Assembly: GCA_964529435.1 (NCBI GenBank)
Contig: CAZGUT010000004.1
Span: forward strand, 51,765-91,764
From: an uncultured Candidatus Peribacteria bacterium
Lineage (GTDB): Bacteria; Patescibacteriota; Gracilibacteria; UBA1369; 2-02-FULL-48-14
Reading direction: 5' to 3'
DNA length: 40,000 nt
Part shown: one piece after another, positions 3,492-32,362 of the stretch
How positions within the stretch are numbered: position 1 is the first letter of the stretch
How the letters are laid out: each line of letters begins with the position of its first letter
Translations under genes and position numbers: made by a program
The notes under the pieces: generated by a model
What the model was told of the DNA's origin: nothing
Seen by the model: only the letters and a program-made list of their open reading frames with translations
The model's database searches: none

Positions 3492-3961
3492 TGACAAACA
3501 TTTTCTTGCTCATAATCGCAGCTCTTATAATAGCCTTCATCTGGCTAATTTGGCTCAGGCAGTCACTGTTAAACACACTCCAAGTAAGCGAACAAAAACG
3601 CCAAATCCTCCAACTCGATCTCAACAAACGCCGAGACGTCGTTCCATATTTATTGGAAAGCTTCCGCGCCGCCCAAGAACCCAACGACGCCTGGCACAAA
3701 ATCCTCAATCAACGAAAAGAATTCAACCAATCCTCAACCCTAGAAAAAGAATGGGAATTCGAACAAAACCTCGCACACTTCATGCGCGACACCCACATCA
3801 AAACCCAAAATTTCTTGGAAGCAAAAAAAGCAATCCAAGATCTCACAGATTTAGTCGAAAAAGAAAAACTAGAACTCGAAGCCGCCACTCAAACCTTCAC
3901 TGAAAAGCAAAAACAATTCCCTTACTCCATGGCTTCTGCTATCTTCGGTCTCCGTGCATAA
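3491..3961 (+). CDS. lemA: LemA family protein
   Basis: N-terminal TM helix, LNKRRDVVPYLLESF and C-terminal FPYSMASAIFGL match the LemA layout. TGATG start/stop overlap with the upstream gene. Confidence 0.75.
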   Translation: MTNIFLLIIAALIIAFIWLIWLRQSLLNTLQVSEQKRQILQLDLNKRRDVVPYLLESFRAAQEPNDAWHKILNQRKEFNQSSTLEKEWEFEQNLAHFMRDTHIKTQNFLEAKKAIQDLTDLVEKEKLELEAATQTFTEKQKQFPYSMASAIFGLRA

Positions 3962-3965
3962 GCAT

Positions 3966-5345
3966 ATGAAGTATCACATCCAAACTTACGGCTGCCAAAT
4001 GAATTATTCGGACTCGGAACGAATCGCGTCTGTTCTTGAATCTCTCGGCTATTCCAAAGCCAAAGACCAATCCAAGGCAGACCTCCTAATTTTCAACACC
4101 TGCAGCGTTAAACAAAAAGCTGAAGACCGCGTGACTGGCCTCCGCCGCTCTCTCGCAAATCTCAAAGCAACAAACAAAGATCTTCAAATCGCCATCACCG
4201 GCTGCATGATCCGCAATACATCAACCCAAAACTCAGAAAAAAAAGACAAGGTTCTCCGCACAATGCCGGAAGTAGACATCGCCTTCAAAATCGACGAACT
4301 AGCTGTCCTCCCAGAACTCATCCAGCCAACCCAAACCCAAGCAGACCTCCCCACAAACTACTTCCGCATCGCACCAAAAAAACAATCCACCGCCCAAGTC
4401 CTAGTCCCAATCATGACCGGCTGCGACAAATTCTGCAGCTACTGCATTGTCCCCTTCGCCCGTGGCCGTGAAAAATCCAGAGATTTCAACGAAATCCTCA
4501 AAGAATGCACCCGCCACGTAAAAGAAGGCGCAATTGAAATCACACTCATAGGTCAAACCGTAAACTCATACGGCCTCAGCCACCACGACCAGGCCCGTAG
4601 CGCAGCAGAGGGCCCTTGCCCCTTTAACCCAAACGGCTCTGGTACACCCTTCTCAGCCCTCCTCAAAGAAATCGACAAACTCCACTCCTCCGGCCTCAGA
4701 AGACTCAGATTCATGTCCCCACACCCCAGAGATTTCCATGATGAACTAATCCAAACTCTAGCCAGCCTCAAAACCATCTGCCCCTACATTCACATGCCAG
4801 TCCAATCCGGTGACGACGAAACCCTTCGTCGCATGAACAGAAATTACCGCGTGGAAGAATACAAAACCATCATGCGAAAAATCCAAAACGCCATTCCCGG
4901 CTGCGCAATTTCAACGGACATAATTGTTGGCTTCTGCGGTGAAACAAAAGAGGAATTCCAAAACACTTACAACATGTACAAGGAAATGGAATGGGATATA
5001 TGCTACGTATCAAAATACTCACCACGCAAAGGCACTTACTCAGAACGCAAACTCCATGACGACGTCCCAGCAAAAACCAAAACCGCCCGCTGGCGCAAAA
5101 TCAATGACGAACTTCTCGTTCCAATCGCAGCAAAAAAACACGCTGCCTTCCTCGGCAAAACCGTAGAGGTCTTGGTAGAACAGTGCGCAGCGAAGCGAAG
5201 CACTATTTTCAAATGCTCCGGCCGCACTCCAGAATCCAAAGAAGTCTTCTTCAAATCCACCACCCCCGTCCTCGGCAAACTCGTCCAGGTCAAAATCACA
5301 AAAGCTCAATCTCTGTGCCTAGAAGGAGAGCCAATCTCAACTTAA
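3966..5345 (+). CDS. miaB: tRNA methylthiotransferase MiaB (radical SAM)
   Basis: MKYHIQTYGCQMNYSDSE N-terminal UPF0004 motif, radical-SAM CDKFCSYC (CxxxCxxC), C-terminal TRAM-like GKTVEVLVE. The ATG at 3966 is preferred over the GTG at 3954 listed in the track. Confidence 0.85.
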   Translation: MKYHIQTYGCQMNYSDSERIASVLESLGYSKAKDQSKADLLIFNTCSVKQKAEDRVTGLRRSLANLKATNKDLQIAITGCMIRNTSTQNSEKKDKVLRTMPEVDIAFKIDELAVLPELIQPTQTQADLPTNYFRIAPKKQSTAQVLVPIMTGCDKFCSYCIVPFARGREKSRDFNEILKECTRHVKEGAIEITLIGQTVNSYGLSHHDQARSAAEGPCPFNPNGSGTPFSALLKEIDKLHSSGLRRLRFMSPHPRDFHDELIQTLASLKTICPYIHMPVQSGDDETLRRMNRNYRVEEYKTIMRKIQNAIPGCAISTDIIVGFCGETKEEFQNTYNMYKEMEWDICYVSKYSPRKGTYSERKLHDDVPAKTKTARWRKINDELLVPIAAKKHAAFLGKTVEVLVEQCAAKRSTIFKCSGRTPESKEVFFKSTTPVLGKLVQVKITKAQSLCLEGEPIST

Positions 5346-5896
5346 AAAGTCCAGAAAATCCCGTGGTTACCATAACCCCCCATAAGACTTCCTTCCAGAT
5401 TTGTTCTTGAAAAAATTCCACCGGGCTGAGTGCCTTCTTTATACACCAAAAAAGAAAAATGAGTACAAACTTTCACGATAAGAACCTGAAAATCTCCACA
5501 CAATCTCTCAGTAAAGACTACAAGCCATTTACCACCCAAATCTTCCAAAACAACCCGCTCACCATCATCCAAATAATGCTTTTCTGGAGAATGCCCAAGC
5601 TTTCTCAAAAGCTCACCAAGGCTTACATTGTCAATGCAAAAACTATTTGGTACAGAAGGATTAGCTGATGCTCTCGGATGAGGATATGTACGATACACTC
5701 TTACGCCTTCATTACCATCATCTCCGCAAAAAATATGACGCTTAATGTCATTACACCACCCATCTCCATCTAAAGAATCCGTTAACTGTTCACGAAAATC
5801 GGGATGTTCTTGGGCTAATCTTTCAATCCCAGACTCAATAACATCACACAATTGCACTTTATCCAAATCTTCAACAGGGGCTGAGTTATCAAGCAT
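5342..5896 (-). CDS. Hypothetical protein (184 aa), no recognisable motif
   Basis: Only long ORF in this interval, ATG start. Converges on miaB with a 4-nt stop overlap. The amino-acid composition is plausible for a protein. Confidence 0.5.
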   Translation of the reverse strand: MLDNSAPVEDLDKVQLCDVIESGIERLAQEHPDFREQLTDSLDGDGWCNDIKRHIFCGDDGNEGVRVYRTYPHPRASANPSVPNSFCIDNVSLGELLRKLGHSPEKHYLDDGERVVLEDLGGKWLVVFTERLCGDFQVLIVKVCTHFSFLVYKEGTQPGGIFSRTNLEGSLMGGYGNHGIFWTF

Positions 5897-6085: not shown

Positions 6086-6134
6086 TCTTTATCCGCGGCT
6101 TTTAGCAACCCACCCCCTTGCCAAAAACCCCAAA

Positions 6135-6154
6135 ATCTGTTAAAATTAACAGAT
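6135..6154. promoter_or_regulatory. Perfect 9-bp-arm palindrome (candidate operator or 5'-UTR hairpin)
   Basis: ATCTGTTAA-aa-TTAACAGAT, 19 nt upstream of the start codon at 6173. Confidence 0.35.
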
Positions 6155-6172: not shown

Positions 6173-9100
6173 ATGAAAATAAAACACCTGCTTCTAGGCG
6201 CATTACTAGTCGTTCCACTCCTGTTAACTGGAACGGCGCTAAACGTAGAAGAAAACCAAGAAGTCCAGCTAGCCTCTGATGAAATAATCTGTAGCGTTAC
6301 AGGCCCAGATAGCGGCACCTCCTACACAGCAGGAGAAGGCTTTTGGATTTACGGATCCGTAATGGCCAATACAACAGGAGGATACCTGGCAGAAGAAGGC
6401 GTGGAATCTGATATTGAAGGCATAGTTAACGACGACTTCGGAGGGTACCTTTCACTCTCATATAACGGTTCACACACACTCACTGTCTACGCTTACGACA
6501 ACTACGGAAACTACTGTTTTGACACACTCGTTATAAACATTTCCGGCGGCACAGACCCCCCAAGTGACGACACCGACGACACCTGGGACATGGAATACAC
6601 TTACGCCTGTTACGGCGATGACGTTTACTACTACGACAACTACGGCAACGAAACCTACGCCAAAGAATACTGTGACTACGGCTGCACGTCCTACTATTGT
6701 GATGACGCTCCAGAAGACGACTACGACTCCCAAGCCGACTACGCCTGCGACAACGACCACGTTTATTGGCAAAACGACTACGGAAACTTCACTAGCTTAA
6801 AAGAAGAATGTGATTACGGCTGCAGTGACGGAGCCTGTATAGAAGGAAATGACTATTACGATTACAATTGCGCAGGCGACGACGTCTGGTGGGAAGATCA
6901 AAACGGAGACCAAACAGAAATTTACGAAGAATGTGAATGCGGCTGCTCAGGCTGGACTTGTGATTCCTGTTCTGACGACTCAGACAGTGACTATTACGAA
7001 TACTACGACTACTACTGTTTTGACGGAGACATCTGGTGGTATGACAGCAACGGTGACTACACTGAAATTTACGAATACTGTGATGATGGCTGCTCAGGTT
7101 GGTCCTGTGATGATGATTACACTGACTACTACGACGTTTGGTGTGTAGATGATGAAGCTCTTTACTGGTATGACGTTTATGGAACAGTTAGTGATGAACT
7201 CTCTGACGACTGCGATGGATGCGGATGTTACAACTACACCGATAGCAGTTCTTCAAGAGGTTATTGTTATAGTGATTGTGAAGAACCTGAATGCTCCACT
7301 GACTCAGACTGTGGCACTTCAACATCAGAATATGCTTGTTGGGGCGATTCACTTTATGAAGATTTTTACGTCTCTGCTTGTTATGACGGCACCTGCCAAG
7401 AAACCGGCTATTCTCAATTGGTTGAAGACTGTAAATACGGCTGCTCAGACGCTGCCTGTGAAGATGGAGTCACGGTCACCGCACTTTATCCATCGGAAGG
7501 CGAAAGCCTAGATGTCATGCATGGCGGTCGTTTCCACGCTTACTTTTCAGTCAAAAACGGAGATGATCCAATCCCCTCCGCTGAAGTGGTTGTTTCCCGT
7601 GACGGCAGCGACAACTCCAAATCTTTCTACGCAGATGAAAACGGAATCGTAGACATAAATTACAGCACAGACAGCCGCAGCGTTCACTCCACATACACAT
7701 ATAGAATCCTCTCGGTAAACGACTCACCCTCATACGAAAGCTTCGAGGTCTACATTAAAACACCAAACTACTACAGAGCCTTCTCCTCAAGCTTCACAAA
7801 ACAAGGATCCGCATCCGTGGAATTCCAAGCAGAAGGCGCTGAAGAAACAAGCCGAACCATAAAATACTACCCGGAATTTTACCAAGCACTAATCGACCTT
7901 TCCACAAAATACAAAGGCGGAGTCGGGCTGGAATGTGGCTCATCCGGAGTCTCAATTGAAGCCGGCCCAATCAAAGGAAAAGCCGGATATGAATGCGGCG
8001 GCTCAGTCGGGCTTTTTGCAATTGGAGAGGACGGATACAAATTTGATTATGACGAATACCAAAGCTACTACGACTACGCAGAAAGTGAACAATACCGCGC
8101 ACTCCAAATGTTCCGTCTCTTAACAATCAGTTACGCACACCAAATTTCGCCTCTGCTCCGCAGAGTAGTAGATAACACTGCATTCGCCCTTTCAGGTGAC
8201 GCAGACGATTATCTTTACAAAGCAAGTACCGCAATTGGCGGCTACGGCCAAGTAGCAGTGGATGGCGGAATTGGAGTTGACGTTGGAGACAGCGCAACCG
8301 TTGGTGCAATAGCTCAACTTGGAGTTGGTGGGGAAGGTTCAATCGGTGCGACTGACTATCCAATGGACAATAAAGAAAGTATCGTTGTGAAAGTTGGGCT
8401 GAACGGCACCGCAAACTTAGCAGTTGGCATTGTGAGTGATGGAAACCCAACACTCGGAATTGGAACAGACGTTGGAGAAGTGACCGGCACAGGAATCTTA
8501 GAAAAAATCTACGATAGCTACGGAGATCTAGATGAAACTGTTCTTAGCATAGAAACAAATGATGCAATCTACCAATACAAATTCTCAGGCACAAGCGGTT
8601 ATGAAACTCTCTGGGAAGACTTGGAAGATCAAGGCGGATTCACATTTAATAGCGTCCTTTACTACTTCATTTCTTACGCACTCAATGACCCTTACGCCGA
8701 AGTCAAATACACAGTCCGCGAACACGTTGATAAAGACTCACTCAACTTCAACCTCGGAGCCAGCGGTAAACTGCTCGGGGTTGGTGGAGAACTCGGTATC
8801 AAAATCAAAGAAGATACCAAAGTAACTTACGTCAGCTCAGAAAGTATTCTCGCTTCCGGCACGGAACTTTTGATCGCGGAATATGACGAACCAGATTCAA
8901 TCACAATCGACTTGGAAGACTTAATCCTAAACAGCTTCGCAACAGCAAACCCTGAATTCATGTATGCCCTTGAACAAGGTGAAGAAATGGCAGAAGCAGC
9001 CGGAGAAGTTCTCGGTGAAGCAATGCAAACTGTTGAAGACGGCGTTATCTCTCTGGGCAACGCCACAGTCAGTTTCCTAGGTTCATTAAGCCCATTCTAG
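6173..9100 (+). CDS. Large secreted acidic protein with tandem 4-Cys repeats
   Basis: Signal-peptide-like N-terminus MKIKHLLLGALLVVPLLLTGTA. Tandem Asp/Tyr/Cys-rich modules span aa ~141-429. Then an Ig-like stretch and a ~450-aa Gly-rich C-terminal region. Uninterrupted 975-aa ORF. Confidence 0.8.
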   Translation: MKIKHLLLGALLVVPLLLTGTALNVEENQEVQLASDEIICSVTGPDSGTSYTAGEGFWIYGSVMANTTGGYLAEEGVESDIEGIVNDDFGGYLSLSYNGSHTLTVYAYDNYGNYCFDTLVINISGGTDPPSDDTDDTWDMEYTYACYGDDVYYYDNYGNETYAKEYCDYGCTSYYCDDAPEDDYDSQADYACDNDHVYWQNDYGNFTSLKEECDYGCSDGACIEGNDYYDYNCAGDDVWWEDQNGDQTEIYEECECGCSGWTCDSCSDDSDSDYYEYYDYYCFDGDIWWYDSNGDYTEIYEYCDDGCSGWSCDDDYTDYYDVWCVDDEALYWYDVYGTVSDELSDDCDGCGCYNYTDSSSSRGYCYSDCEEPECSTDSDCGTSTSEYACWGDSLYEDFYVSACYDGTCQETGYSQLVEDCKYGCSDAACEDGVTVTALYPSEGESLDVMHGGRFHAYFSVKNGDDPIPSAEVVVSRDGSDNSKSFYADENGIVDINYSTDSRSVHSTYTYRILSVNDSPSYESFEVYIKTPNYYRAFSSSFTKQGSASVEFQAEGAEETSRTIKYYPEFYQALIDLSTKYKGGVGLECGSSGVSIEAGPIKGKAGYECGGSVGLFAIGEDGYKFDYDEYQSYYDYAESEQYRALQMFRLLTISYAHQISPLLRRVVDNTAFALSGDADDYLYKASTAIGGYGQVAVDGGIGVDVGDSATVGAIAQLGVGGEGSIGATDYPMDNKESIVVKVGLNGTANLAVGIVSDGNPTLGIGTDVGEVTGTGILEKIYDSYGDLDETVLSIETNDAIYQYKFSGTSGYETLWEDLEDQGGFTFNSVLYYFISYALNDPYAEVKYTVREHVDKDSLNFNLGASGKLLGVGGELGIKIKEDTKVTYVSSESILASGTELLIAEYDEPDSITIDLEDLILNSFATANPEFMYALEQGEEMAEAAGEVLGEAMQTVEDGVISLGNATVSFLGSLSPF
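6593..7459 (+). repeat. In-frame tandem coding repeats (about 6 units of ~41-49 aa)
   Basis: Four units have identical Cys spacing C-x20-C-x3-C-x4-C (Cys146/167/171/176, 192/213/217/222, 233/254/258/263, 282/303/307/312). Each has an aromatic core [VI][YW][YW]xDxxG. Two more degenerate units follow. DNA motif GGCTGC(TCAG) recurs. Confidence 0.8.
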
Positions 9101-9101: not shown

Positions 9102-10754
9102 ATGAAAAAAATGAAAAAATTTATCGGGAAACACAGAAGAATAATTGACGCATATCTGCTCATAAAATTAGTTTCACTCTGCCTTCTTGCAGTAATCCCT
9201 TTCAGCGCAGCCGTTTCAGAAGATGAGATTTACGCACTTGAAATTGAATCTGACAACGCAGTTTACGGCATAGTCGACCAAATTTACTTAGGCCCACTAG
9301 ACGAAACCTTGGAGGAAGAAGCCCAAATCCAATTCACATATGAAAACTCTGATGTCTCTAACTTCGACGAAAGCACCCTAGCCGTTTACAAATATGACTT
9401 TGACAACGAAATGTGGGAACACATCGGTGGGGAAGTGGATACAGACGAAAACACAGTAACGGCAACAATCACAGAAACCGGCCAATACGCAATGGCTCCT
9501 GCTGTCCCATCTGGAACGATAACTTTTGAAGACGACGACATAACTCTCACTTTTGATGGCTCAGAATCAGTAGAAATAGAAACCGAAAATATTTATAACA
9601 ACGACGACACAGAAATCGCAGATGATGAAGTCTTCACAATCACAGCAAGCAACGGTTCCATCACAGAAGGTGATGAAATCGAATCAGAAGACGGAAAACT
9701 TAGTTTCACATTCCAAACAAATGGGATCGCCTTGGACACGGAAATCACAGTCACAAGTGAACACGCAGAAGCCACCGGCACACTCACAATCACAGCTGAA
9801 GACGCCGGCGATCCAGACGAACCGGAAGGCCTTGAATATATTGATGGGCCCGAAGCAGTCTTCATCAACTGGGATGCAAACACAGAAGAAGACCTGGAAG
9901 GCTATCTCATTTACTACCGTGAAGAAGGCTCAGACGACTGGAACGGAGATGCAACTGATGAACTTGCTTCCCCAATTGAAGTCTTAGCAGGGACAAGTTA
10001 TTACCAACTCCGCCTGGACGACTACACCAATTATGAAGTGGCATTGAAAGCCGTGGACATGGCTGGCAACACCAGCGGCTACTCAGACACAATTTCTTTC
10101 ACAACCGAATATTTAACAAACTTTACAGTTCCAGAAGCAGAAGATGACTCAAGTACCCCACCCGAAGGCGACACAGAATACGAATTCTCAGACATCGCAG
10201 ACCACTGGGCAAAAGAATACATTGAATTCCTCGCGAGTTACGGAATCATCGCAGGTTACGACGACAACACTTTCCGCCCAGATAACGAAATCAACCGCGC
10301 AGAAGCACTCAAAATCTTAATGGGCGCAACCGGTTATGACTCAGATTACGCAAGTAACTACTATGAATATTACGGCCTTGTAAGCTCCGGCCTCACGGAT
10401 GTTGAGTCAGGCGCTTGGTATGAATTCTACGTAGATATGGCAGTTTCTATTGGAGTTGTTGGCGGATACTCAGACGGAACTTTCAAACCAGCCCAAAGCA
10501 TCACCCGCGCCGAATATATAAAGATGCTTGGCATCATAATCCAAACCTACAACTACACTCTTGAATTCTCAACGGATGCAGGAGAACCATTTGATGACGT
10601 AAATGACGATGACTGGTTTGCCCCTTATGTCGTTTACTTCTACAACAACGACATCATCTCCGGCTACGATGAAACCACTTTTGCACCAGGCAACGCAATA
10701 ACCCGTGCCGAAGCAGCCAAAATCCTACACGGGGCAGTAATGCTAACTTATTAG
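9102..10754 (+). CDS. Cell-surface protein with fibronectin type III domain and three C-terminal SLH domains
   Basis: N-terminal signal/anchor. FN3-like PEGLEYIDGPEAVFINWDAN...YEVALKAVDMAGNTSGYSDTISFTT (nt ~9813-10106). Three SLH repeats lie at nt ~10185-10736: FSDIADHWAKEYIEFLASYGIIAGYDDNTFRPDNEINRAEALKIL, LTDVESGAWYEFYVDMAVSIGVVGGYSDGTFKPAQSITRAEYIKML and FDDVNDDDWFAPYVVYFYNNDIISGYDETTFAPGNAITRAEAAKIL. Starts 1 nt after the upstream stop. Confidence 0.85.
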   Translation: MKKMKKFIGKHRRIIDAYLLIKLVSLCLLAVIPFSAAVSEDEIYALEIESDNAVYGIVDQIYLGPLDETLEEEAQIQFTYENSDVSNFDESTLAVYKYDFDNEMWEHIGGEVDTDENTVTATITETGQYAMAPAVPSGTITFEDDDITLTFDGSESVEIETENIYNNDDTEIADDEVFTITASNGSITEGDEIESEDGKLSFTFQTNGIALDTEITVTSEHAEATGTLTITAEDAGDPDEPEGLEYIDGPEAVFINWDANTEEDLEGYLIYYREEGSDDWNGDATDELASPIEVLAGTSYYQLRLDDYTNYEVALKAVDMAGNTSGYSDTISFTTEYLTNFTVPEAEDDSSTPPEGDTEYEFSDIADHWAKEYIEFLASYGIIAGYDDNTFRPDNEINRAEALKILMGATGYDSDYASNYYEYYGLVSSGLTDVESGAWYEFYVDMAVSIGVVGGYSDGTFKPAQSITRAEYIKMLGIIIQTYNYTLEFSTDAGEPFDDVNDDDWFAPYVVYFYNNDIISGYDETTFAPGNAITRAEAAKILHGAVMLTY

Positions 10755-11443
10755 CTCTCCACAATAATTCTCTCAGCCAAAACTCCTGCAATTCTAAGGT
10801 CTGTAACGTTTCTTAAACGTGGATCATTTTCTGGTAGTTTCACAAGACGACACCCCGTAATCTCTGCAGGTGTATTCCCTCTAACCATCATTTCTCCACC
10901 TTCGCCAAAAGTCACATAACAATACTCCCAAGACTTTCCAGGAAAGTTCATCCGCACAATCGGACCAGATGAAAATGCTTGCACGTTAAGCGCAGGAGTG
11001 GCTCGGAGAATTTCAAAAAAGGCCCGCACTCTACAATCTTCAAGACTTCCAGTAAGCTCCCTAACACGCCTACCACCTTCTAAACTTCCATCACAAAACC
11101 AACTTGCTGTGAAATTAGGGCCATCAAGTTTCTGAGAAGTAAGGTGCCAAACAGGAAGCTCCACAACACCACTCGGCGTATCAGGCGTCACACATGGGTC
11201 CTCATCAAAAGATAAAACCTCATGTCCACTATACGTAGGTTCAGAATATCCAAACAACTGTGCAAACCGTTCAGGGTCAACGCCATATTTGTCTCTGAAA
11301 AAAGTACGTGCCTTCATAAGATCCAATACAGTTCTAGACTCACCAGGCATAGAAATAACTAACCCAGTATTAACGCCTTTCTCAACATCATGGTTGTGGG
11401 CATAACGCCTCGCACGAAAAATATCTAAAGGAGATACTGGCAT
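10751..11443 (-). CDS. Hypothetical protein (230 aa)
   Basis: Only long ORF here, ATG start. Convergent 4-nt stop overlap with the SLH gene. No motif recognised. Confidence 0.55.
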   Translation of the reverse strand: MPVSPLDIFRARRYAHNHDVEKGVNTGLVISMPGESRTVLDLMKARTFFRDKYGVDPERFAQLFGYSEPTYSGHEVLSFDEDPCVTPDTPSGVVELPVWHLTSQKLDGPNFTASWFCDGSLEGGRRVRELTGSLEDCRVRAFFEILRATPALNVQAFSSGPIVRMNFPGKSWEYCYVTFGEGGEMMVRGNTPAEITGCRLVKLPENDPRLRNVTDLRIAGVLAERIIVES

Positions 11444-11487
11444 ACTCTAAAAATTAAACAAGAAGCACTTATACCACACCTCTTCCT

Positions 11488-13542
11488 TTATGCCAACACC
11501 GCTTTCACCCTCCGCACTCCCGCACTGGAAGACTGCTCTTTCACAATCTTAAATTTTCCAAGCTCTCCAGTCCGCTCAGCATGCGGCCCACCACAAATCT
11601 CTTTTGAAAAATCACCCATCAAATAGACCTTAACTTTGCCACCCAAATCATTTTCATACTTGTCTACAAAAATCCCAGTCGCTTTTAACTTCTTTGCATC
11701 TTCAACTGTCATCTCCTGCCACTCAATCTCCAAATCCGCTTCAATCATCTCATTCACAAGCTCTTCCACTTTCGCAAGATCCTCCTTCTTAACTTTCTCC
11801 GGATGTGAAAAATCAAACCGCAGCCGCTCACCATTTATATTCGACCCACGCTGTTTAACGTGATCACCCAAAATCTGTCGCAAGGCCTCCAACATCAAAT
11901 GCGCAGCCGTATGTAATCTCTTAGTTGCTTCTCCATGATCCGCCAAACCACCCGCAAACTTCTGCTCACTTCCAGCCCGTGACTTCTCCTGATGCGCTTC
12001 AAACGCCTTACAAAATCCTTCTTCATCGACTTCAATTCCACGCTCTCCAAAAATCTCCACAGTCATCTCAAGCGGAAATCCATAACTCTCAAAATAATAA
12101 AACGCCCGATCCCCACGCAGCCGCCAACAAGTCTCAAGCATTTTCTCAGCCTTTGCACGTACCTCTTTCATCTCAGTATCACCCAAATCTTTTTGTGCCG
12201 CCTTCCCTTTAAATTCCCCCCTCAACTTTCCAAGCACCGGCCGCAAATTTTTATTAAAACACGCCAGCACTTCCTTATCACTCACAACCTGCGACACCGC
12301 ATTCAGCGCCATCTCAATCCGCGCCACTTTACTCTCTTCAAGCAAAATCTGCAGTGCCTCTTGCACCCGCTCAATATCCTTCGCAATCTCCGCCTCACCC
12401 TTAGCCAGTGTCTTGCCAAACTTCTTCTCCTCCGTCTCCAACGCCCCCACAATTCTCTTTTCACGTTTCACAAGCTCCGGATAATCATCACCATAAATCC
12501 CAATAAAAAGCCGCGCCAACTGCACAGTAAAGTCACCGTCAATCCCAAGCTTCCTTCCATGCCGGATAGCCCGCCGAACCAATTTCCGCAGCACATACCC
12601 CTGATCACAATTCGACGGTGTCACCCCATGCTCATCACCCAAAATGAAAGTCGCCGCCCGCAAATGATCCGCAATAATCCGTTCACTCATCTTATCCATC
12701 TCCGCATCGTCCGTCCCAACCGCCAAGTCCCGAATCCGCCCCATCACATCTGCAAAAAGATCGGTCTCATAATGCGTTTCCGCCCCATTCAAAATCGCCA
12801 TCACACGCTCAAACCCCATTCCAGTATCCACATTTTTCTGCTCCAATGGCGAATAACTTCCATCGTCCTCCTTGAAATACTCCATGAAAACATCATTCCA
12901 AATCTCCACCCACGGCGTGTCGTCATCCGACGGCTCCGTATCCCACATCTTGCCCAAATCCTCACCAGTAAAATAAAACATCTCAGTGTCCGGCCCACAC
13001 GGCCCAGTCTGCCCAGCCGGCCCCCACCAATTCTCCTTTTTGTCGTAGAAAAATATTCTCTGCCCCTGCCCATTCTTAGCCTCATCTGCCAACACAAACC
13101 CAAGCTCCTTCCAAACCCGCGCAGACTCCTCATCTCGCGGTGCATCATCATCCCCCGCAAAACAACTCACACACAACCGCTCCGGATCCAAACCAAGCCC
13201 ACACGCCTTATCCGTCAAAAACTCATAGCTCATCTTAATCGCCTTCTCTTTAAAGTAATCCCCAAGCGACCAATTCCCCAACATCTCAAAAAACGTCAAA
13301 TGCGTCGCGTCGCCAACCTCATCCACATCATCCGTCCGCAAACATTTCTGCACATTCACAAGCCGCGTCCCCATCGGATGAGACTCACCTACAAGATACG
13401 GCACCAGCGGATGCATCCCCGCCGTCGTAAAAAGCACGGTCGGATCATTCTCAGGCAACAAACTCGCACCTGAAATTTCCTTATGCCCATGCTTCTCAAC
13501 AAAGAAGTCAATGTAGCGCCGACGAAGTTCAGAAGCTTTCAT
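11488..13542 (-). CDS. alaS: Alanine--tRNA ligase, short form lacking the C-Ala domain
   Basis: MKASELRRRYIDFFVEKHGHKEISGASLLPENDPTVLFTTAGMHPLVPYL class II AlaRS N-terminus. Editing-domain motifs HTAAHLMLEAL and CGGPHAERTGELGKFKIV are present. The protein stops just after GVRRVKAV. Confidence 0.93.
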   Translation of the reverse strand: MKASELRRRYIDFFVEKHGHKEISGASLLPENDPTVLFTTAGMHPLVPYLVGESHPMGTRLVNVQKCLRTDDVDEVGDATHLTFFEMLGNWSLGDYFKEKAIKMSYEFLTDKACGLGLDPERLCVSCFAGDDDAPRDEESARVWKELGFVLADEAKNGQGQRIFFYDKKENWWGPAGQTGPCGPDTEMFYFTGEDLGKMWDTEPSDDDTPWVEIWNDVFMEYFKEDDGSYSPLEQKNVDTGMGFERVMAILNGAETHYETDLFADVMGRIRDLAVGTDDAEMDKMSERIIADHLRAATFILGDEHGVTPSNCDQGYVLRKLVRRAIRHGRKLGIDGDFTVQLARLFIGIYGDDYPELVKREKRIVGALETEEKKFGKTLAKGEAEIAKDIERVQEALQILLEESKVARIEMALNAVSQVVSDKEVLACFNKNLRPVLGKLRGEFKGKAAQKDLGDTEMKEVRAKAEKMLETCWRLRGDRAFYYFESYGFPLEMTVEIFGERGIEVDEEGFCKAFEAHQEKSRAGSEQKFAGGLADHGEATKRLHTAAHLMLEALRQILGDHVKQRGSNINGERLRFDFSHPEKVKKEDLAKVEELVNEMIEADLEIEWQEMTVEDAKKLKATGIFVDKYENDLGGKVKVYLMGDFSKEICGGPHAERTGELGKFKIVKEQSSSAGVRRVKAVLA

Positions 13543-13607
13543 AAAAAAGGCTATTTCCAGGTCAGCATTCTAGCACGCCCAGGGCAAAAGGGTAAAGTTT
13601 TCTAATG

Positions 13608-14063
13608 TCACTTCTCCTCATTTCCACTCGCCTGGAGCGCCTCCTGACAACTCGTTTCATCATCAACCCACATAAATCTTCCATCAGGGATGCTAACACA
13701 AGAATCATAATAACCGCCTTCACGACGAACAGCATCTATCCGCTTATCTTTTGGATCCCAGTCCTCACAATCAACTACTCCCAGGGCAATGGTATTTTTT
13801 CCAGCTACACGTGTTCCATCCTCAGCTTGAGGGCAAGACCCCAATGCTCTTTCAATGCGTCTTTCTGTGGCAGCTGCAATCTCCTCTTGAGAAAATTCCT
13901 CAGGAGCTTCACGTGTCACAAATGCCTCATCTTTATCTTCCACAGGCACCTTATCTTCTACAGCTACTTCCACAGGTGGAGGGGGAGGTGCAGGCACATC
14001 CTCTGTCCCAGGATTACAAGCCCCAAGCCACACCAGTGTCCCAAATGTTTTTCCTAATTCCAT
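13608..14063 (-). CDS. Putative lipoprotein with poly-Pro/acidic linker
   Basis: MELGKTFGTLVWLGAC has a lipobox-like LGAC. This is followed by PAPPPPPVEVAVEDKVPVEDKDE and a 4-Cys domain. The ATG at 14063 is preferred over the GTG at 14084. Confidence 0.5.
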   Translation of the reverse strand: MELGKTFGTLVWLGACNPGTEDVPAPPPPPVEVAVEDKVPVEDKDEAFVTREAPEEFSQEEIAAATERRIERALGSCPQAEDGTRVAGKNTIALGVVDCEDWDPKDKRIDAVRREGGYYDSCVSIPDGRFMWVDDETSCQEALQASGNEEK

Positions 14064-14318
14064 AAGCAAATTTAAGAAAGGCACGCAGTATAGGACAATT
14101 TCGGTAAACAGTCAAGCGGCACGGCAGTCGAAAAACTACAGCTGAAAAAATCAAATCCTCCCACACCATCTCTAAAAATCCTGTCACGCCAAAAGCGCTT
14201 ATTCAAGCCATTTTCACCTGTTTCAACCTGGACGCAACCTGTCCAACAGGGTAAAATCTAAGCGTACACTCACCCCATATACCTTCGTATAAATTCTACT
14301 CCCTAATCCCCCACAATA

Positions 14319-15293
14319 ATGAAAACATCAAACACATTAAAAACACTTTCCGACAGTGAACTTTACCGAAAAGCTCAAAAATACGGCTCAAACACATTGA
14401 TGTGGAAACGCAAATTTACAGGTCTACTGCCTGAAATTTATAGCCGTGGTCTTTATCGAAAACACGGAATTGCCTCAATTCACGAATTTGCCGCAAAATT
14501 AGCAGGGATGAGCCAAGTTTCTGTGGACAGGATTTTACGTCTTTCCAAGAAACTTAAAGACAAACCAGCTTTAAAAGCACAACTAGAAACAGGGGCACAA
14601 GGTTGGTCAAAAATTGAAAAAGTAGCTTGTATTGCTACTCCGGAAACAGATGAAAAATGGGCGGGAAAAGTTGAAATACTCTCATTACACGCTTTGGGTG
14701 CTTATGTGCAGGGAATGAGAAAAAATGTCGTCGACGACATATTAAAAAACAAAGAAAAAAGCACGCAAGAATCAGAAAGAGAAAACCCTGAACAAATTCA
14801 ACAATGGGAGAAAATAACGTTCAACGTATCCCCGGAAACAAAACAAATGCTAAGGATTTTTAAGGAAGAACATGGATGTTTGACTTTAGATGAAGCTCTT
14901 CAAAAGCTACTCAAAAATGAACAGAACAAAAAAGCAAAAATAACAATTCAGGTCTGTCCAGATTGCGCGGAGAAGAAAGCTGAAAAACTCACGAACAGCC
15001 GACACATCCCTGTAGACGTACGCCGGATGATTTATGCAAAATACAAAGGGGTCTGTGCTTTTCCAGGTTGCAAACATGCGGCAACATCACTTCATCACAC
15101 CAAAAGATTTGCACTATATCCAAAACACGAACACATCGTGCCACTCTGCGATGGGCACGAACAACTGGCCCACGCAGGACTGATAGCAAATGAAGATGGT
15201 CCACCAGAAAATTGGAAGCTACTCGAGAGGCCCAACATTGAAGATCCAAAATTCCATATTGATCAAAGCGTGACTCACCACAGACGTGGTTAA
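14319..15293 (+). CDS. HNH endonuclease domain protein with N-terminal HTH-like region
   Basis: C-terminal CAFPGCKHAATSLHHTKRFALYPKHEHIVPLCDGHEQLAH (Cys pair plus HNH-type His/Asn core). N-terminal IHEFAAKLAGMSQVSVDRILRL is helix-turn-helix-like. Confidence 0.75.
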   Translation: MKTSNTLKTLSDSELYRKAQKYGSNTLMWKRKFTGLLPEIYSRGLYRKHGIASIHEFAAKLAGMSQVSVDRILRLSKKLKDKPALKAQLETGAQGWSKIEKVACIATPETDEKWAGKVEILSLHALGAYVQGMRKNVVDDILKNKEKSTQESERENPEQIQQWEKITFNVSPETKQMLRIFKEEHGCLTLDEALQKLLKNEQNKKAKITIQVCPDCAEKKAEKLTNSRHIPVDVRRMIYAKYKGVCAFPGCKHAATSLHHTKRFALYPKHEHIVPLCDGHEQLAHAGLIANEDGPPENWKLLERPNIEDPKFHIDQSVTHHRRG

Positions 15294-15371
15294 CACTGAA
15301 CGCGACCCTCCACTTATGCTACAATACGCCCACTCGTACGCGCTTTTTGCCCGACACTACCCTTCATCCCA

Positions 15372-16832
15372 ATGACAAAAACGCTCAAACATTTTCAAGC
15401 ACTTCTCTCGGAGGGGATATTCGTCACCAGCCTAGTTATGGTTTTTGTGATGGTGAGCTTTGTGACTTTTATGCGACTGACCAGCCTTCCGAATCTAGCG
15501 GAAATCCTACCAGCGGAAGAAACCACAGCCTTCATCACTCTCAACCTGGACGACTACCTCTCTTCTACCGACAAGCCATCGCCGCTAATAAGTGAACTCC
15601 TGACCTACGAAACTTTTCTTGGCGACCATATCGCCTTCGCGCTGATAAGTGATGAAATAGTTCCACTCTTGGAAGTCGACTCAAAAAGTAGTGCCAAAGA
15701 ATTCCTAGAAACGGCACTAATAACAGATTACATTTTCCTTAAAGATTTCCTCATAACATCTCCATCCACTTCTGTCCGCGAAGCCCTAGACTCAAGCACC
15801 CAAACCGTCGAACAAACTGACTCCTACCAAAATGCCCGCGGCCGCCTCCCATACTTTTCCAGCGCTTATGCTTATGTGGATCTGCAAGCAGCCAGAATGG
15901 ATTTGGTCCGGCTCATGGGAGATGTCGGCATTTACGAGCCCGGCTATCTGGAAACAATCCTCAATATTTTCCCAGCCCTAGGCCTTTCAATCGACATGAA
16001 CCCCAGCGAATGGGACGCAGAAGTTTTCATGGCTGTCGACAAATCACAACTCAACGGTGAAGCATTTTTCAAGCACAAACTTAAATACCGCCACGAATTC
16101 TTAGGTCTCAGCTCAAACGGATATGCCTTTGAATGGGGAGGGCACGACTTAGCCGCACAACTCACGAGAACAAGTGAACTCCTCGCAATTCTGAATGAAA
16201 GCGCCTCTTTGGCATTTGATGGTGGAGTAAAAGAATACATATCATCTCTTTTTGGCAGTGAATTAACCCTCGAGGAAATCTACGCAGCCCTCGGCGGAGA
16301 ATATTATCTGGGATGGACACCCAGCGAGAAACTATTACTTATCTTAGAACTTGAAGACGAAACTGCTTTCAACCAAGCTCAAAATCTCAAAGATTATTTC
16401 GCAAATAACTACACCCACACCAAAACTTATGAAACCGAAAATGGTGAAATCCGTGCGGAAATAAAAGATCTCAAAGGAACCTCGGCAAGCTACAATGACA
16501 TGAACTATTTCCGCTTTGGAACAGATGAAGAAACTTTCATTCGCATAGCAATTTCAGAAAATCATGCAATTGTGTCTACTTCCGAAGAAGAATTTTTCGC
16601 CACACTAGACAAAATTCAAACTGGACAAAATCTCCGTGACACGTCTGATCTAGGTAAGCTCCTTTCCGGTGCAGACGAAATTTCCTCACTCGACCTGGAG
16701 TTTTTTGAAGAAGGGCATATACTGAGATCGCTGCTAGACAATTTCGGCAAAATCACAGCCTCGCGCAAAATTTTTGACGACGGTGTCTACTCGCGCTACT
16801 CAATCACGCTCGAGCAAAGTGAATCCGATTAA
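15372..16832 (+). CDS. Membrane-anchored hypothetical protein (486 aa)
   Basis: Single N-terminal TM (IFVTSLVMVFVMVSFVTFM), then an acidic soluble domain. No catalytic motif recognised. Confidence 0.6.
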   Translation: MTKTLKHFQALLSEGIFVTSLVMVFVMVSFVTFMRLTSLPNLAEILPAEETTAFITLNLDDYLSSTDKPSPLISELLTYETFLGDHIAFALISDEIVPLLEVDSKSSAKEFLETALITDYIFLKDFLITSPSTSVREALDSSTQTVEQTDSYQNARGRLPYFSSAYAYVDLQAARMDLVRLMGDVGIYEPGYLETILNIFPALGLSIDMNPSEWDAEVFMAVDKSQLNGEAFFKHKLKYRHEFLGLSSNGYAFEWGGHDLAAQLTRTSELLAILNESASLAFDGGVKEYISSLFGSELTLEEIYAALGGEYYLGWTPSEKLLLILELEDETAFNQAQNLKDYFANNYTHTKTYETENGEIRAEIKDLKGTSASYNDMNYFRFGTDEETFIRIAISENHAIVSTSEEEFFATLDKIQTGQNLRDTSDLGKLLSGADEISSLDLEFFEEGHILRSLLDNFGKITASRKIFDDGVYSRYSITLEQSESD

Positions 16833-18942
16833 TCTAAACATCGGCCCAGAAGACACTCCATCAGATGACTTCCCAAAGTCATCTGCACATTTGGTGAATC
16901 TGAAAAAAACCGACAAAAGCAAAAAGAAAGCAGCCAAAAAATCCGTCTCTCTCAATCTGAAAGACGAAATCAAAAACGAACACAAAAATGCTGGACGTAT
17001 TTGCATAGTGGGAGAACTGCCAAGATCGAAGCAAGGCCTCGGCCGCGCTCCGATGATTTTAGCAGCGCTTTTGGTAGTTCTCCTTCTGAGTGCAGGGCAG
17101 GTGATGTTCCTCGGCAAAAAGGAAGGCGGCGAAGCCCTGGCTCTCGCAAGTGAAGCCTTTTTGTCTCTACAAGGAGCAAGCCAATCTTTTCTCCAAGGTG
17201 ACGCCGCAGACGACTTCACACTTTTTAACGACGCAGAAGAATTGTTTCAAGAAGCAGAAGCCAAAGGTGCATTTCTACTTAATCATCAATCAAAGTGGCT
17301 AACCGAACCAAGCAAAGTTCACAGCCTCCGTAACATCTTAAATGCCGGTGAACTCATGGCTGAAGTAGGTCAACACATCACAAATTCCAGAACCCAACTG
17401 ATGGACATGCCTGCAGACGGTTCCCTCACAGAATATCTAAAAGCCATCTCAACCGAACAGCTTGAACCCGCAGCACAAAAACTCGATCAAATTGAAACCC
17501 TTCTAGATGAAACAGATCTTTCCGGCACTGGCTACGAAGAAAAATTCTACGACTATCGTGAAAAACTCAGCACCCTCTCAGATCTTTTTGACCTCTGGAT
17601 TTCTGCAAAAGACCCCGTTTTTTCCGCTCTCGGTGACCGCTACCCCCAACACTACCTCATACTTCTGATGAACAACGACGAAATTCGTCTCGGCGGAGGA
17701 TTCATTGGCTCTCTCGCAATCGCTGAAATCAATGACGGCCGTCTCACAGAACTAGACTTCCATGACGTTTACGAATTCGACAACCAATTCCACGGAAAAA
17801 TTGAATTCCCAGTCCACGAACTCCGCCAGCTCGCACCATACTGGTGCCTGCGTGACAGCAATATTTCACCAGACTTCCCAACAACAGCCGAGCACGCAAT
17901 TCGCTTCTTAGATCTTGAAGGTGGCCCAGGTGTAGACGGCGTAATCGCCATCAACCTCTCCGCAGCTCAAGCAATGATGGAAGAACTCGGCGAAGTCTCA
18001 ATTCCATCCCTCAGCAAAGCACTCACCGCAGAAACTCTCCCAGCCGTTCTCAGCACTTTAGTCGAAGCAAAAGTCTCCGGCACAACAACACCAAAAGACA
18101 TCCTTGCAGAACTCATCGACTCCTTCATGGCATCTCTAGACAGCATGGAAGTGAAAGCAAAAATCGGCATGCGCATTCTTGAGGAAATCGATAAAAAACA
18201 AGTCCTCATCTACCACCGCAACGACTCCATCCAAAACCTCATCACATCCCTCGGCCTAGACGCATCAATCCCACAACTCGGCAATATAAACTCCTCCTCC
18301 GTCGGAGTAGAAACAGACTTCTTCCTCCCTGCATTCACGAACATTGGCGGTAACAAAACAGACCGCTACATCCAGACCCAAATCCAACATGACACCCAAA
18401 TCCTAGCCGACGGCACAATCCTCAACGCAGCCACACTGACCCGCACGCACACCTTCAACGCAGCTGCCTCCGCATGGCTAAAATCTGCAGCCGCCTCTTA
18501 CGGCTTCACCAACTGGACACCTGAACTTGAACGCATCCTCGGCGACGACGACAACCACACAGGCATCCGCCTCTACATCCCGGAAGGCAGCCAAATCCTT
18601 GAAACCTCCGGCATCCATCGTGATGATCTCCAATTCTTTTACGACGAAGAACAAGACATCTCTTACTACTACTTAGACCAAATCATCCCAACAGACAGCA
18701 CGGAGTCCTTCACCGTGATCTATTCTCTCCCATGGAAATTCCAGGGTGAATTCCAAGAATACGAATTCGATCTTTTCAAACAGCCCGGCCTCAAATCCAT
18801 CACTTACGAAAAAACTGTCACAGCCCCAAATGACATCATGCTCTCCTCAGAACCACTCGCCACCGAATTCATAGAAAACACAGACTACACCCTCAGCGGC
18901 AGTCTGGGTGGGGATGTAAACATCAAAGTCCTCTACCGCTAA
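16774..18942 (+). CDS. DUF4012-like membrane-anchored protein
   Basis: Lys-rich N-terminal tail, one TM (MILAALLVVLLLSAGQVMFLG), and the core YLILLMNNDEIRLGGGFIGSLAIAEINDGRLTELDF. That core resembles the DUF4012 signature (QN..E.R..GG..G). The start is uncertain; a GTG at 16819 would reduce the overlap with the upstream gene from 59 to 14 nt. Confidence 0.6.
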   Translation: MTTVSTRATQSRSSKVNPINLNIGPEDTPSDDFPKSSAHLVNLKKTDKSKKKAAKKSVSLNLKDEIKNEHKNAGRICIVGELPRSKQGLGRAPMILAALLVVLLLSAGQVMFLGKKEGGEALALASEAFLSLQGASQSFLQGDAADDFTLFNDAEELFQEAEAKGAFLLNHQSKWLTEPSKVHSLRNILNAGELMAEVGQHITNSRTQLMDMPADGSLTEYLKAISTEQLEPAAQKLDQIETLLDETDLSGTGYEEKFYDYREKLSTLSDLFDLWISAKDPVFSALGDRYPQHYLILLMNNDEIRLGGGFIGSLAIAEINDGRLTELDFHDVYEFDNQFHGKIEFPVHELRQLAPYWCLRDSNISPDFPTTAEHAIRFLDLEGGPGVDGVIAINLSAAQAMMEELGEVSIPSLSKALTAETLPAVLSTLVEAKVSGTTTPKDILAELIDSFMASLDSMEVKAKIGMRILEEIDKKQVLIYHRNDSIQNLITSLGLDASIPQLGNINSSSVGVETDFFLPAFTNIGGNKTDRYIQTQIQHDTQILADGTILNAATLTRTHTFNAAASAWLKSAAASYGFTNWTPELERILGDDDNHTGIRLYIPEGSQILETSGIHRDDLQFFYDEEQDISYYYLDQIIPTDSTESFTVIYSLPWKFQGEFQEYEFDLFKQPGLKSITYEKTVTAPNDIMLSSEPLATEFIENTDYTLSGSLGGDVNIKVLYR

Positions 18943-19010
18943 GCAAACATTTGCCTTTGTGTCCCAAAATGGTGTAGGCTGCGGTCTTCTTAAATGCAAA
19001 ATATTTCACC

Positions 19011-19799
19011 ATGACGTTAAGCGTACACGAATTCCCGGCAACTCCCGATCTTCCCAAGCTACCAAATATCTTAAAAGAATTTCTAAGTGGGCAAACAAAC
19101 CTACCAGATCTAGTTGACACCCGCGACGACACTCTCAGACGCGTATTAATTGCATCTTTGCACGCAACTCAAAAAGCACTTGAAGACTCTGACGCAGGAA
19201 AAGAAGCGGCAAATAAAGCCCCTTATCCAGAAAATCCAAGAGGCTCACAATCAGACAGATGGTTCGGAAATTTTGACGAATGGGGATGTCTTCAAAAAGG
19301 CTTAGGCGTACATCAAACGGCAAGCCAAATAAGCCGAGGAATTTTTACTCATGTAGGCCTAGGCCCCGGTTCCTTTACAGGAAGGAGGGAACAAGCAATA
19401 CCTGACTCACTTACCCTCGAAAGAGGACAAAATATTCAGATGTCAGAAACAGGAAATAGAACACATAGGATGGGAAGATTTTCTGTTGTGAGCCCTATAA
19501 GAAGGGACGCACACTTAAAAGCTTCTGGCCTGATAGAAATCACAGAGAGTGATGCAGTAAGCTCCACAAGTCTCGGGGGAGAAGACGGGAATCTATTTAT
19601 GAAAGAAGGTGGTAAATCTAATAGATCCCACTCCCCAATAGTTGTACCAATTTTTGGCACACATTTTGTGCCAGGTGAAGAAAGAGCATTCCTGGGCGTA
19701 TTAAACAAAGCACACACCTCTGGGGGTTATATCTCCAGACAACAACTAATACGTGGCTGTTTCATACCTTTTGGCAGTGGAGCGGTAGAAGCCTTTTAA
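19011..19799 (+). CDS. Hypothetical protein (262 aa)
   Basis: Longest ORF in the interval, ATG start. No motif recognised. Converges on the 843-aa gene. Confidence 0.5.
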   Translation: MTLSVHEFPATPDLPKLPNILKEFLSGQTNLPDLVDTRDDTLRRVLIASLHATQKALEDSDAGKEAANKAPYPENPRGSQSDRWFGNFDEWGCLQKGLGVHQTASQISRGIFTHVGLGPGSFTGRREQAIPDSLTLERGQNIQMSETGNRTHRMGRFSVVSPIRRDAHLKASGLIEITESDAVSSTSLGGEDGNLFMKEGGKSNRSHSPIVVPIFGTHFVPGEERAFLGVLNKAHTSGGYISRQQLIRGCFIPFGSGAVEAF

Positions 19800-22363: not shown

Positions 22364-22417
22364 AAACCAAAATTAAAAACTAAGGCCCAGAAACATACCC
22401 CAAAACTCACCACCTGT

Positions 22418-32042: not shown

Positions 32043-32318
32043 ATGAACAGAGAAAGAATAAGTTTAATCCTAGCAGTCCCAGCATTACTTGCCTCGACGT
32101 GTGCATTGCCGGGCGTACAAGAGCAATTTACAACACGCACACCAGTAGCAATGACATCAAAACCTCTTTCAAAAGAACGAAAAGCACATAATGGCTTTAT
32201 TGAAGGTTGTACAGAACTTTGCTTGTGGGCAACAAATTGTATTGATGCTACTTGTTCCTTGGAAAGAAACGAATGCCAAAGAAGATGCATTTTCGCTCTA
32301 CATGAACCACGAGATTGA
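32043..32318 (+). CDS. Possible small secreted Cys-rich protein (91 aa)
   Basis: Signal-like MNRERISLILAVPALLASTC followed by 6 further Cys. Fits between the palindrome and the purP-2 promoter. No Shine-Dalgarno sequence and an antisense ORF of similar size, so weakly supported. Confidence 0.35.
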   Translation: MNRERISLILAVPALLASTCALPGVQEQFTTRTPVAMTSKPLSKERKAHNGFIEGCTELCLWATNCIDATCSLERNECQRRCIFALHEPRD

Positions 32319-32334
32319 AATAGTAAATAATCTC

Positions 32335-32362
32335 TTGTCCGTGTATATTATCTCCATAGAAT
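32335..32362 (+). promoter_or_regulatory. Candidate promoter upstream of the second purP paralogue
   Basis: TTGTCC -16 nt- TAGAAT, 15 nt upstream of the ATG at 32377. Confidence 0.35.

Follow-up and report, generated by a model that had tools for sequence, protein, structure and literature searches.

Two adjacent genes in a 40,000-nucleotide (nt) stretch of DNA from an uncultured Candidatus Peribacteria bacterium (the window), which we call A and B, encode predicted surface proteins, the first built around six copies of a cysteine-rich module of about 40 amino acids (aa) and the second ending in S-layer homology (SLH) repeats. Profile searches show that the module forms a genuine domain family, for which structure prediction returns a confident fold; it recurs in secreted proteins of candidate phyla radiation (CPR) bacteria and DPANN archaea and lies outside Pfam, NCBIfam and the PDB. 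We consider it slightly more likely than not that A and B are the paired subunits of a surface scaffold or adhesin anchored on the cell wall of this Peribacteria-like (CPR) bacterium. Attachment to other cells is the presumed lifestyle of CPR bacteria and DPANN archaea, and to our knowledge the molecules with which they make contact are almost unknown, their surface proteins being mostly annotated as 'hypothetical'. If confirmed, the module merits a family entry of its own; the advance is an incremental one, adding a new domain family and a variant architecture and no new kind of biological system.

A cysteine-rich module with a predicted all-beta fold

Four modules in A match the pattern C-x20-C-x3-C-x4-C exactly, with first cysteines at C146, C192, C233 and C282 (spacing 46, 41 and 49 aa), and each holds an aromatic hairpin motif, respectively VYYYDNYG, VYWQNDYG, VWWEDQNG and IWWYDSNG (pattern [VIL]-[YW]-[WY]-x-[DN]-x-x-G). 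A first-pass annotation, made from the sequence alone, had described at least four such modules with identical cysteine spacing, 41-49 aa apart and each with an aromatic core, followed by two degenerate copies, all of which we recovered, the degenerate copies at aa 318-352 and aa 389-429. It had also listed an extra CEEPECSTDSDC stretch as a separate element, this turned out to be the N-terminal part of a long, eight-cysteine form of the module (query 369-429 matches the archaeal protein P0004) in which a 10-aa insert with two extra cysteines splits the profile match of aa 389-429. In 20,000 shuffles of aa 130-450, at least one exact-spacing match arose in 488 and more than two in none. Scored against a profile of 107 modules, all taken from other proteins, modules 1 to 4 gave independent E-values of 1e-10 to 2e-16, and the best of 200 composition-preserving shuffles reached -20 bits against the same profile. 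Tandem Repeats Finder reported solely 9-nt Asp/Tyr codon repeats and none of module length, so the modules are old duplications and not recent DNA repeats.

The wider family comes from a single-sequence, exhaustive HMMER search of 1.84 billion representative proteins (E <= 1e-3), in which A matched 76 proteins, the majority of them through aa ~130-430 alone; a locally iterated profile then placed 286 modules in 72 of the 76. Three word-indexed searches of a 5.8-billion-protein collection, with the full-length protein, a C-terminal alignment and a module alignment, returned the query itself or nothing, which we ascribe to the index and not to absence because the exhaustive search gave 76 matches. 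The common form of the module has six cysteines (C-x-S-H-x4-C-Y-x-G-x-V-Y-W-Y-D-S-C-G-x9-C-x-Y-G-C-x2-G-x-C); among 131 copies extracted by regular expression, 14 have the four-cysteine form seen in A and 96 have the extra cysteine in the turn. The four core cysteine columns are invariant in 111 aligned modules (C-x(20-22)-C-x(2-3)-C-x4-C), whilst at least 90% of modules share W16 and G21. Both extra cysteines of the six-cysteine form are present in 78 modules, neither in 18, the N-terminal one alone in 0 and the turn cysteine alone in 15 (Fisher test, p = 4e-12), with roughly 10 of these 15 carrying a compensating extra cysteine elsewhere, for example as 'CC'. Since the extra cysteines come in even numbers and in compensating pairs, we favour disulfides over metal sites as their probable role. 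Extracytoplasmic disulfides are plausible in such cells because an MdbA-like oxidoreductase with VKOR, serving this purpose, is common in CPR genomes (bioRxiv 10.1101/335083).

AlphaFold2, run on the 111-module alignment with module 4 as the query, predicted an all-beta domain of five short strands with a mean predicted local distance difference test (pLDDT) score of 94.3, in keeping with the first-pass view of the modules as mini-domains. Neither sequence nor structural searches placed the repeat unit in a known domain family in the libraries searched: there was no significant match to Pfam, NCBIfam or PDB sequences, profile searches included, and Foldseek of the module model against the PDB and BFVD gave nothing with E below 1. 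Among individual candidates, Pfam LNR (PF00066) gave no match in A even at E up to 10, and neither TIGR02232 (the Myxococcus cysteine-rich repeat, presumably among the TIGR models that NCBIfam lists) nor PF11617 (MopE-type) matched A at E up to 1. YD/Rhs repeats, EGF-like repeats and zinc ribbons were rejected, as no model matched and their cysteine pattern is wrong. LNR, which pappalysin-1 also carries, has six cysteines and little secondary structure around a Ca2+ ion. Its arrays in bacterial surface proteins are like the module in being extracellular, ~35-40 aa in length, disulfide-rich, Asp-rich and tandem, and they occupy the same position in the same frame in two relatives of A (P0002 and P0081, below), yet the cysteine pattern and the fold differ, the module having four core cysteines and five predicted beta-strands.

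About 70 other representative proteins contain the module. The carriers are secreted proteins labelled as DPANN archaea, Peribacteria-like proteins and other bacterial-looking proteins, with organism labels that include Candidatus Aenigmarchaeota and 'archaeon'; they bear signal peptides or lipoboxes and, where a source name is given, it is either 'hypothetical protein' or refers to another domain. The archaeal P0004 repeats the long eight-cysteine form 11 times. In a Pfam scan of relatives, covering 26 of the 76 HMMER-found proteins together with P0081, the module kept company with a trypsin-like protease (P0003), CARDB (P0008), DUF2341 (P0009, P0012), FGE-sulfatase (P0010), DUF11 (P0011), Laminin_G_3 (P0014, P0040), SLH and TSP1 (P0019) and MopE-type putative metal-binding motifs (P0048). 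Because of these varied partner domains and organism labels the module is, as judged from its sequence contexts, a promiscuous extracellular building block and not peculiar to gene A.

Large Cys-rich exported proteins have been reported from Peribacteria before, with a proposed role in attachment (PMC4736985). In view of this precedent, the first-pass wording of a structure of an undescribed type goes too far when applied to the entire protein. The proteins described, from Candidatus Peribacter riflensis, belong to the same bacterial group and likewise have signal peptides, they contain several per cent cysteine, were proposed to confer rigidity or attachment and showed weak similarity to pappalysin-1 (PMC4736985). 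That paper reports a trend in composition without a domain definition; the module, its fold, its wider spread and the SLH cassette are undescribed there.

The variable middle of A and its link to gene B

The open reading frame (ORF) of gene A runs from ATG to TAG, and the gene is intact, with a 100% identical protein, on the six contigs read (three places shown; three samples). Samples in which this contig occurs include JGI 3300009374, SRR8062331 and SRR9166041. As the first-pass annotation had proposed, the protein begins with a signal-peptide-like segment (MKIKHLLLGALLVVPLLLTGTA/LN, resembling a Sec signal peptide when read by eye) followed by a PKD/Ig-like domain. The middle of the protein is as Asp/Tyr-rich and acidic as had been noted: aa 130-432 contain 85 D+E against 4 K+R, 15.5% Tyr and 32 of the 36 cysteines of A, with a net charge of about -81. 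The isoelectric point (pI) is ~4 for both A and B, and the housekeeping proteins of the window span pI 5 to 10; beyond A and B the acidity is seen in just a few neighbours, and because of the housekeeping range we read it in A and B as surface-specific. Halophilic 'salt-in' acidity was rejected, the cytoplasmic proteins of the window not being acidic. Searches of Pfam and NCBIfam found no SLH or other anchor family in A, and by eye its C-terminus (...VSFLGSLSPF) has no sortase motif or transmembrane segment; gene A had no match in PHROGs. A promoter-like site precedes A by consensus match (Table 1), promoter-like sites in the region being fewer than in its shuffles.

Comparison with two relatives shows where the protein varies. 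A consists of an Ig-like domain, six modules, no LNR, a second Ig-like domain and the C-terminal domain. P0002 (1191 aa; 49% identity over the C-terminal 545 aa) has two Ig-like domains, nine Pfam LNR (2.9e-49), a single module, an Ig-like domain and the C-terminal domain, whilst P0081 (1194 aa; 41.5% identity over 1055 columns) has two Ig-like domains, five near-identical tandem four-cysteine modules, three Pfam LNR (1.4e-8), one further module, an Ig-like domain and the C-terminal domain. The C-terminal match to P0002 was obtained by blastp with the C-terminal half as query and no composition-based statistics; a full-length query with them missed it. P0081 is encoded on a contig (L007) of a Candidatus Peribacteria metagenome-assembled genome, the nearest genome match (one locus, from a scan with a 2-sequence alignment), and aa 430-975 of A share 49-51% identity with P0002 and L007. 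A module at the position of module 6, directly before the second Ig-like domain, is also present in both relatives. Because of these three architectures, the frame of the protein is by sequence comparison a conserved one and its middle a cassette in which small Cys-rich domains of two kinds occur in differing numbers: six modules in A, six with three LNR in P0081, and one with nine LNR in P0002. Swapping and multiplication of modules and LNR within one frame is the variation expected of an exposed surface.

Outside the cassette, a profile of the N-terminal domains gave sub-threshold and consistent matches to collagenase PKD, internalin K Ig-like and bacterial Ig domains (E 0.013-0.056), and Foldseek with the model of aa 430-975 returned generic Ig-fold matches alone. 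The Gly-rich C-terminal region of ~450 aa, in which no motif had been recognised at first, indeed matched nothing in Pfam, NCBIfam, PHROG or PDB sequences, also when a C-terminal-alignment profile was used. It does have relatives, in proteins bearing sorting domains of the type IX secretion system (T9SS; Table 1). Scanning metagenomes twice with C-terminal alignments yielded no confirmed relative. We also considered a thioester site at GYECG and rejected it, its cysteine being missing in distant relatives.

Gene B starts 1 nt past the stop of A (TAG A ATG), and no promoter-like site was found between them. An fn3+SLH gene follows an A-like gene in two other genomes, after a 23-nt gap in a different neighbourhood in one (L004; 47% identity to B) and after a 21-nt gap in the other (L007; 52% identity), so the pair is kept in three genomes, in each case as two ORFs with signal-peptide-like N-termini. 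In more distant relatives the two are one polypeptide: aa ~438-747 of A and then aa 55-339 of B match P0044, P0046 and P0031 with gene order kept (E for the A part 4e-13, 1e-12 and 9e-10, respectively), and these three proteins end in a T9SS sorting domain. The link to an SLH-anchored partner that the first-pass annotation had drawn is thus upheld by both kinds of relative. A two-gene cassette that is fused in other bacteria predicts a specific protein-protein contact. Colinearity of A with the fused relatives over its whole length was dropped, hhalign of its last 235 aa against their middle part giving a probability of 0.2.

P0079, the full-length member of the 90%-identity cluster of P0046, has an N-terminal cohesin and adjoins a dockerin-bearing beta-helix protein, and in this setting the shared core acts as a surface scaffold whose outer head varies. 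At this locus (L008, 5627-12617) P0079, with cohesin and FlgD_ig domains, stands directly after the beta-helix protein, which has a weak T9SS sorting-domain match of its own; by its domains the pair looks like a cohesin-dockerin pair in a bacterium using T9SS sorting domains. P0044, P0046 and P0079, all annotated as 'hypothetical proteins', carry, colinear in a single chain, the Ig-like and Gly-rich core seen in A and the Ig/fn3 core seen in B. Like A and B together, they combine a variable distal head with a C-terminal envelope anchor; unlike them, they are single polypeptides, anchored by a T9SS C-terminal domain and with cohesin or CarboxypepD_reg heads, and the ~300 aa between the shared parts are not alignable with the tail of A. 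P0046, a partial sequence, is labelled Candidatus Bathyarchaeota at NCBI, probably through a binning error. Surface-protein genes cluster on L007 around its A-B pair, which is followed at 3915-5516 (minus strand) by a further SLH protein in which FG-GAP/VCBS-like 'DLDGDGDLDV...WYENDG' repeats are numerous.

Table 1. Positions of genes A and B and of their parts in the window (aa numbering is that of the respective protein).
Feature	Position	Strand	Description
Promoter-like site	6118..6146	+	TTGCCA-17-TAAAAT with TG extension, 27 nt upstream of the A start codon; consensus match only
Gene A	6173..9100	+	975-aa predicted secreted (signal-peptide-like N-terminus), acidic Cys-module protein; net charge ~ -148
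Signal-peptide-like N-terminus (aa 1-23)	6173..6241	+	By-eye reading: K-rich n-region, Leu/Val core, GTA
N-terminal PKD/Ig-like domain (aa 38-125)	6284..6547	+	Flanked by C40 and C115; homologous to tandem N-terminal domains of P0002, P0005 and P0081
Module 1 (aa 140-176)	6590..6700	+	Four-Cys form C-x20-C-x3-C-x4-C; 32.3 bits, other-protein profile
Module 2 (aa 186-222)	6728..6838	+	45.8 bits, other-protein profile
Module 3 (aa 227-263)	6851..6961	+	27.7 bits, other-protein profile
Module 4 (aa 276-312)	6998..7108	+	33.8 bits; structure-prediction query, pLDDT 94.3
Module 5 (aa 318-352)	7124..7228	+	Degenerate, C-x22-C-x2-C-x1-C; 5.8 bits, independent E-value 8e-4
Module 6 (aa 365-429)	7265..7459	+	Long eight-Cys form with CEEPECSTDSDC prefix; matches the 11 repeats of archaeal P0004
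Second Ig-like beta-sandwich (aa 433-530)	7469..7762	+	AlphaFold2 block of eight strands, pLDDT 72-88; conserved in T9SS-domain relatives
Gly-rich domain (aa 531-760)	7763..8452	+	Common to T9SS-sorting-domain proteins P0031, P0044 and P0046; profile E 1e-9 to 9e-18
C-terminal tail (aa 761-975)	8453..9097	+	Peribacteria-like relatives only; ends in an amphipathic helix and the ...SFLGSLSPF strand
Gene B	9102..10754	+	550 aa; own signal-peptide-like N-terminus, Ig-like and fn3-like domains, three SLH repeats
Gene B core (aa 55-339)	9264..10118	+	Colinear with the C-terminal half of fused relatives; blastp 4.5e-38 (P0046 aa 771-1065), 1.6e-30 (P0044), 2.5e-26 (P0031)
Three SLH repeats (aa ~353-546)	10158..10739	+	Pfam SLH E 3.7e-38, 3 stretches; SLH of S-layer protein Sap E 9e-10

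A proposed wall-anchored scaffold and its alternatives

In the arrangement we favour, A and B would each be exported through their own signal peptide and B would bind the cell wall through its three SLH repeats, whilst A, having no anchor of its own, would dock non-covalently on the N-terminal part of B by way of its conserved C-terminal half (the Ig-like domain, the Gly-rich domain and the tail). A would then project outward as a rigid acidic stalk of six small beta-hairpin modules with the PKD/Ig-like domain at its tip, each module being stapled by two disulfides, or by three or four in the long form. The Tyr/Trp/Asp-rich stalk would be the lineage-variable, exposed part of the structure, most likely serving as a spacer and an attachment surface toward another cell or polymer, and it probably carries bound divalent cations. 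Of these steps, we infer export, the formation of disulfides in vivo, stalk orientation, adhesion and cation binding.

Several points weigh against this arrangement. We infer the docking of A on B from conserved adjacency and from fusion in relatives, both of them evidence of sequence, and nothing in the fused relatives could be matched to the last ~215 aa of A. The signal peptides were assigned by eye, and the case for disulfides is an indirect one, built on the paired gain and loss of extra cysteines and on the export signal. Anoxic water is the habitat of many CPR bacteria, and disulfides outside the cell require dedicated machinery there. The AlphaFold2 model of aa 531-975, nearly half of A, was built from a 5-sequence alignment and has a pLDDT below 50, and the sole structural echo of the module is a set of non-significant Foldseek matches (E >2) that includes choline-binding and CROP (combined repetitive oligopeptide) hairpin repeats.

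The alternative that fares best, though we hold it to be unlikely, is that A and B form the S-layer itself, with the Gly-rich half of A making a two-dimensional lattice and B acting as the wall-binding subunit, comparable to the low and high molecular weight subunits of Clostridioides difficile SlpA. In SlpA the conserved subunit, with three cell-wall-binding repeats, retains a variable distal subunit through non-covalent contacts, and the distal part comes first in the precursor; the gene pair and the fused relatives show the same order, the distal-variable part first and the anchor second. Both A and B are very acidic, as are many S-layer proteins. The three SLH repeats of B are similar to those of Sap, and S-layer genes have been reported in Peribacteria (PMC4736985). 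However, outside its SLH repeats the pair has no similarity to any S-layer protein, the fused relatives resemble cohesin-displaying scaffolds and not lattice proteins, and a tandem mini-domain stalk which varies in number and kind is more typical of fibrillar adhesins. Nor does A-B share sequence similarity with SlpA, whose anchor is CWB2 where that of B is SLH, and which is made as one cleaved precursor, whereas A and B are two ORFs with their own signal-peptide-like N-termini in three genomes.

The modules might instead be lectin-like and the protein a glycan-binding adhesin, in which sugars or choline-like groups on a host wall would be recognised by each aromatic hairpin (V-Y-W-Y-D-x-x-G), a reading that we rate as distinctly unlikely. 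The conservation of W16 and G21 and the alternation of the hairpin aromatics would suit such a site, the module co-occurs with the lectin-like Laminin_G_3 domain and with enzymes, and the top non-significant Foldseek matches include the CROPs of TcdA, TcdB and TcsH and the choline-binding repeats of LytA and LytC. Like the module, choline-binding and CROP repeats (CW_binding_1) are aromatic beta-hairpins with a conserved turn Gly, arrayed in tandem in surface or secreted proteins, but they are ~20 aa long, have no cysteines and build a superhelix, whilst the module is an independent 40-aa unit, predicted to be disulfide-stapled. PF01473 (CW_binding_1) found no Pfam match in A, and every Foldseek match had E above 2 and a probability below 0.2 (LytA, LytC and the CROPs E 2.3-8, probability <=0.16). 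The conserved Trp may just pack on the disulfides of a 40-aa domain, and LNR replaces most modules in relatives, which fits a spacer better than a specific binding site.

It is very unlikely, we think, that each module binds Zn, Fe or Cu through its cysteines, or that the acidic, Tyr-rich array is chiefly a binder of cations or minerals. In favour of this stand the four invariant cysteines per module, the strongly negative charge of aa 130-432, the presence at the same position in relatives of LNR, a Ca2+-binding repeat, and the MopE-type putative metal-binding motifs in one module protein. Yet A has an export signal, the cysteines are always even in number with the extra ones in compensating pairs, neither a CxxC...CxxC knuckle pattern nor a conserved His is present, and AlphaFold2 folds the module confidently without metal; Ca2+ binding by an Asp/Glu surface would in any case be compatible with a disulfide-stapled stalk on a wall-anchored partner and is no competitor to it. 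The first-pass annotation had left disulfide and metal stabilisation side by side, and of the two the paired gain and loss of cysteines supports the disulfides, with no positive evidence for metal. Scarcely credible, finally, is a secreted pore-forming or membrane-active effector whose Gly-rich half inserts as amphipathic beta-hairpins whilst the modules target the host, for although the low-confidence model has long beta-hairpins and helices at aa 560-800, Gly/Ser/Thr-rich stretches alternate and a life on other cells is presumed for many CPR bacteria (PMC4736985), the model has a pLDDT below 50 there, no pore-former family was matched, the same domain lies mid-protein in anchored scaffolds with cohesin and T9SS sorting domains, and the gene is tightly paired with an SLH anchor.

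Within the two-subunit scaffold that we prefer, SLH anchoring and tandem mini-domain stalks are already familiar; what appears to be new is the module family with its predicted fold, the interchange with LNR in one frame and the split and fused forms of the scaffold. More tentatively, and with doubt prevailing, the 40-aa module may be an ancient, undescribed extracellular fold, a beta-hairpin with a two-disulfide staple, common to DPANN and CPR as small-celled and probably host-attached lineages and a building block of cell-to-cell attachment, with A-B a split scaffold conserved from SLH-anchored CPR to T9SS-sorting-domain bacteria. If that were true, it would give a concrete handle on how CPR cells hold their hosts.

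Surroundings in the window

The plus strand of the window is persistently C-rich independently of gene strand, with a GC skew down to -0.5 and a monotonically falling cumulative skew, especially at 11001-14000 and 21001-24000; A and B are the exception, with a skew near 0. This C-richness creates long shadow ORFs, for example at 11992..13473 (plus strand, 493 aa) opposite the alanyl-tRNA synthetase gene. Two orphan ORFs with no significant Pfam match flank the pair, one of 184 aa and 3.3% Cys at 5342-5896 (minus strand) and one of 230 aa at 10751-11443 (minus strand), which overlaps the 3' end of B by 4 nt. Both are retained on the identical contigs and are missing beside the L004 pair; downstream of the L007 pair nothing corresponds to the 230-aa ORF.

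Further downstream, a bacterial-type PurH (AICARFT/IMPCHase) at 28532-30100 (plus strand) is followed by BacA at 30104-30847 and by two paralogous PurP-like genes (DUF1246+DUF1297 ATP-grasp) at 30920-31948 and 32191-33549 (plus strand), with only BacA between PurH and them. PurP is the archaeal FAICAR synthetase, and it is unusual for a small genome of CPR type to have two routes for one purine step. A 751-aa type IV coupling-protein-like ATPase (T4SS-DNA_transf, TrwB, TraG-D_C) at 34830-37085 (minus strand) adjoins a 549-aa protein at 37162-38811 (minus strand) with 6.7% Cys, no signal peptide and a C-terminal treble-clef zinc finger (PF23477); from these domains, 34830-38811 may be a conjugative or DNA-uptake module. 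Genes without a Pfam match (324, 486 and 262 aa) surround a DUF4012 protein (16774-18942) within 13605-19799, and two of them, acidic and with N-terminal hydrophobic segments, may encode envelope proteins.

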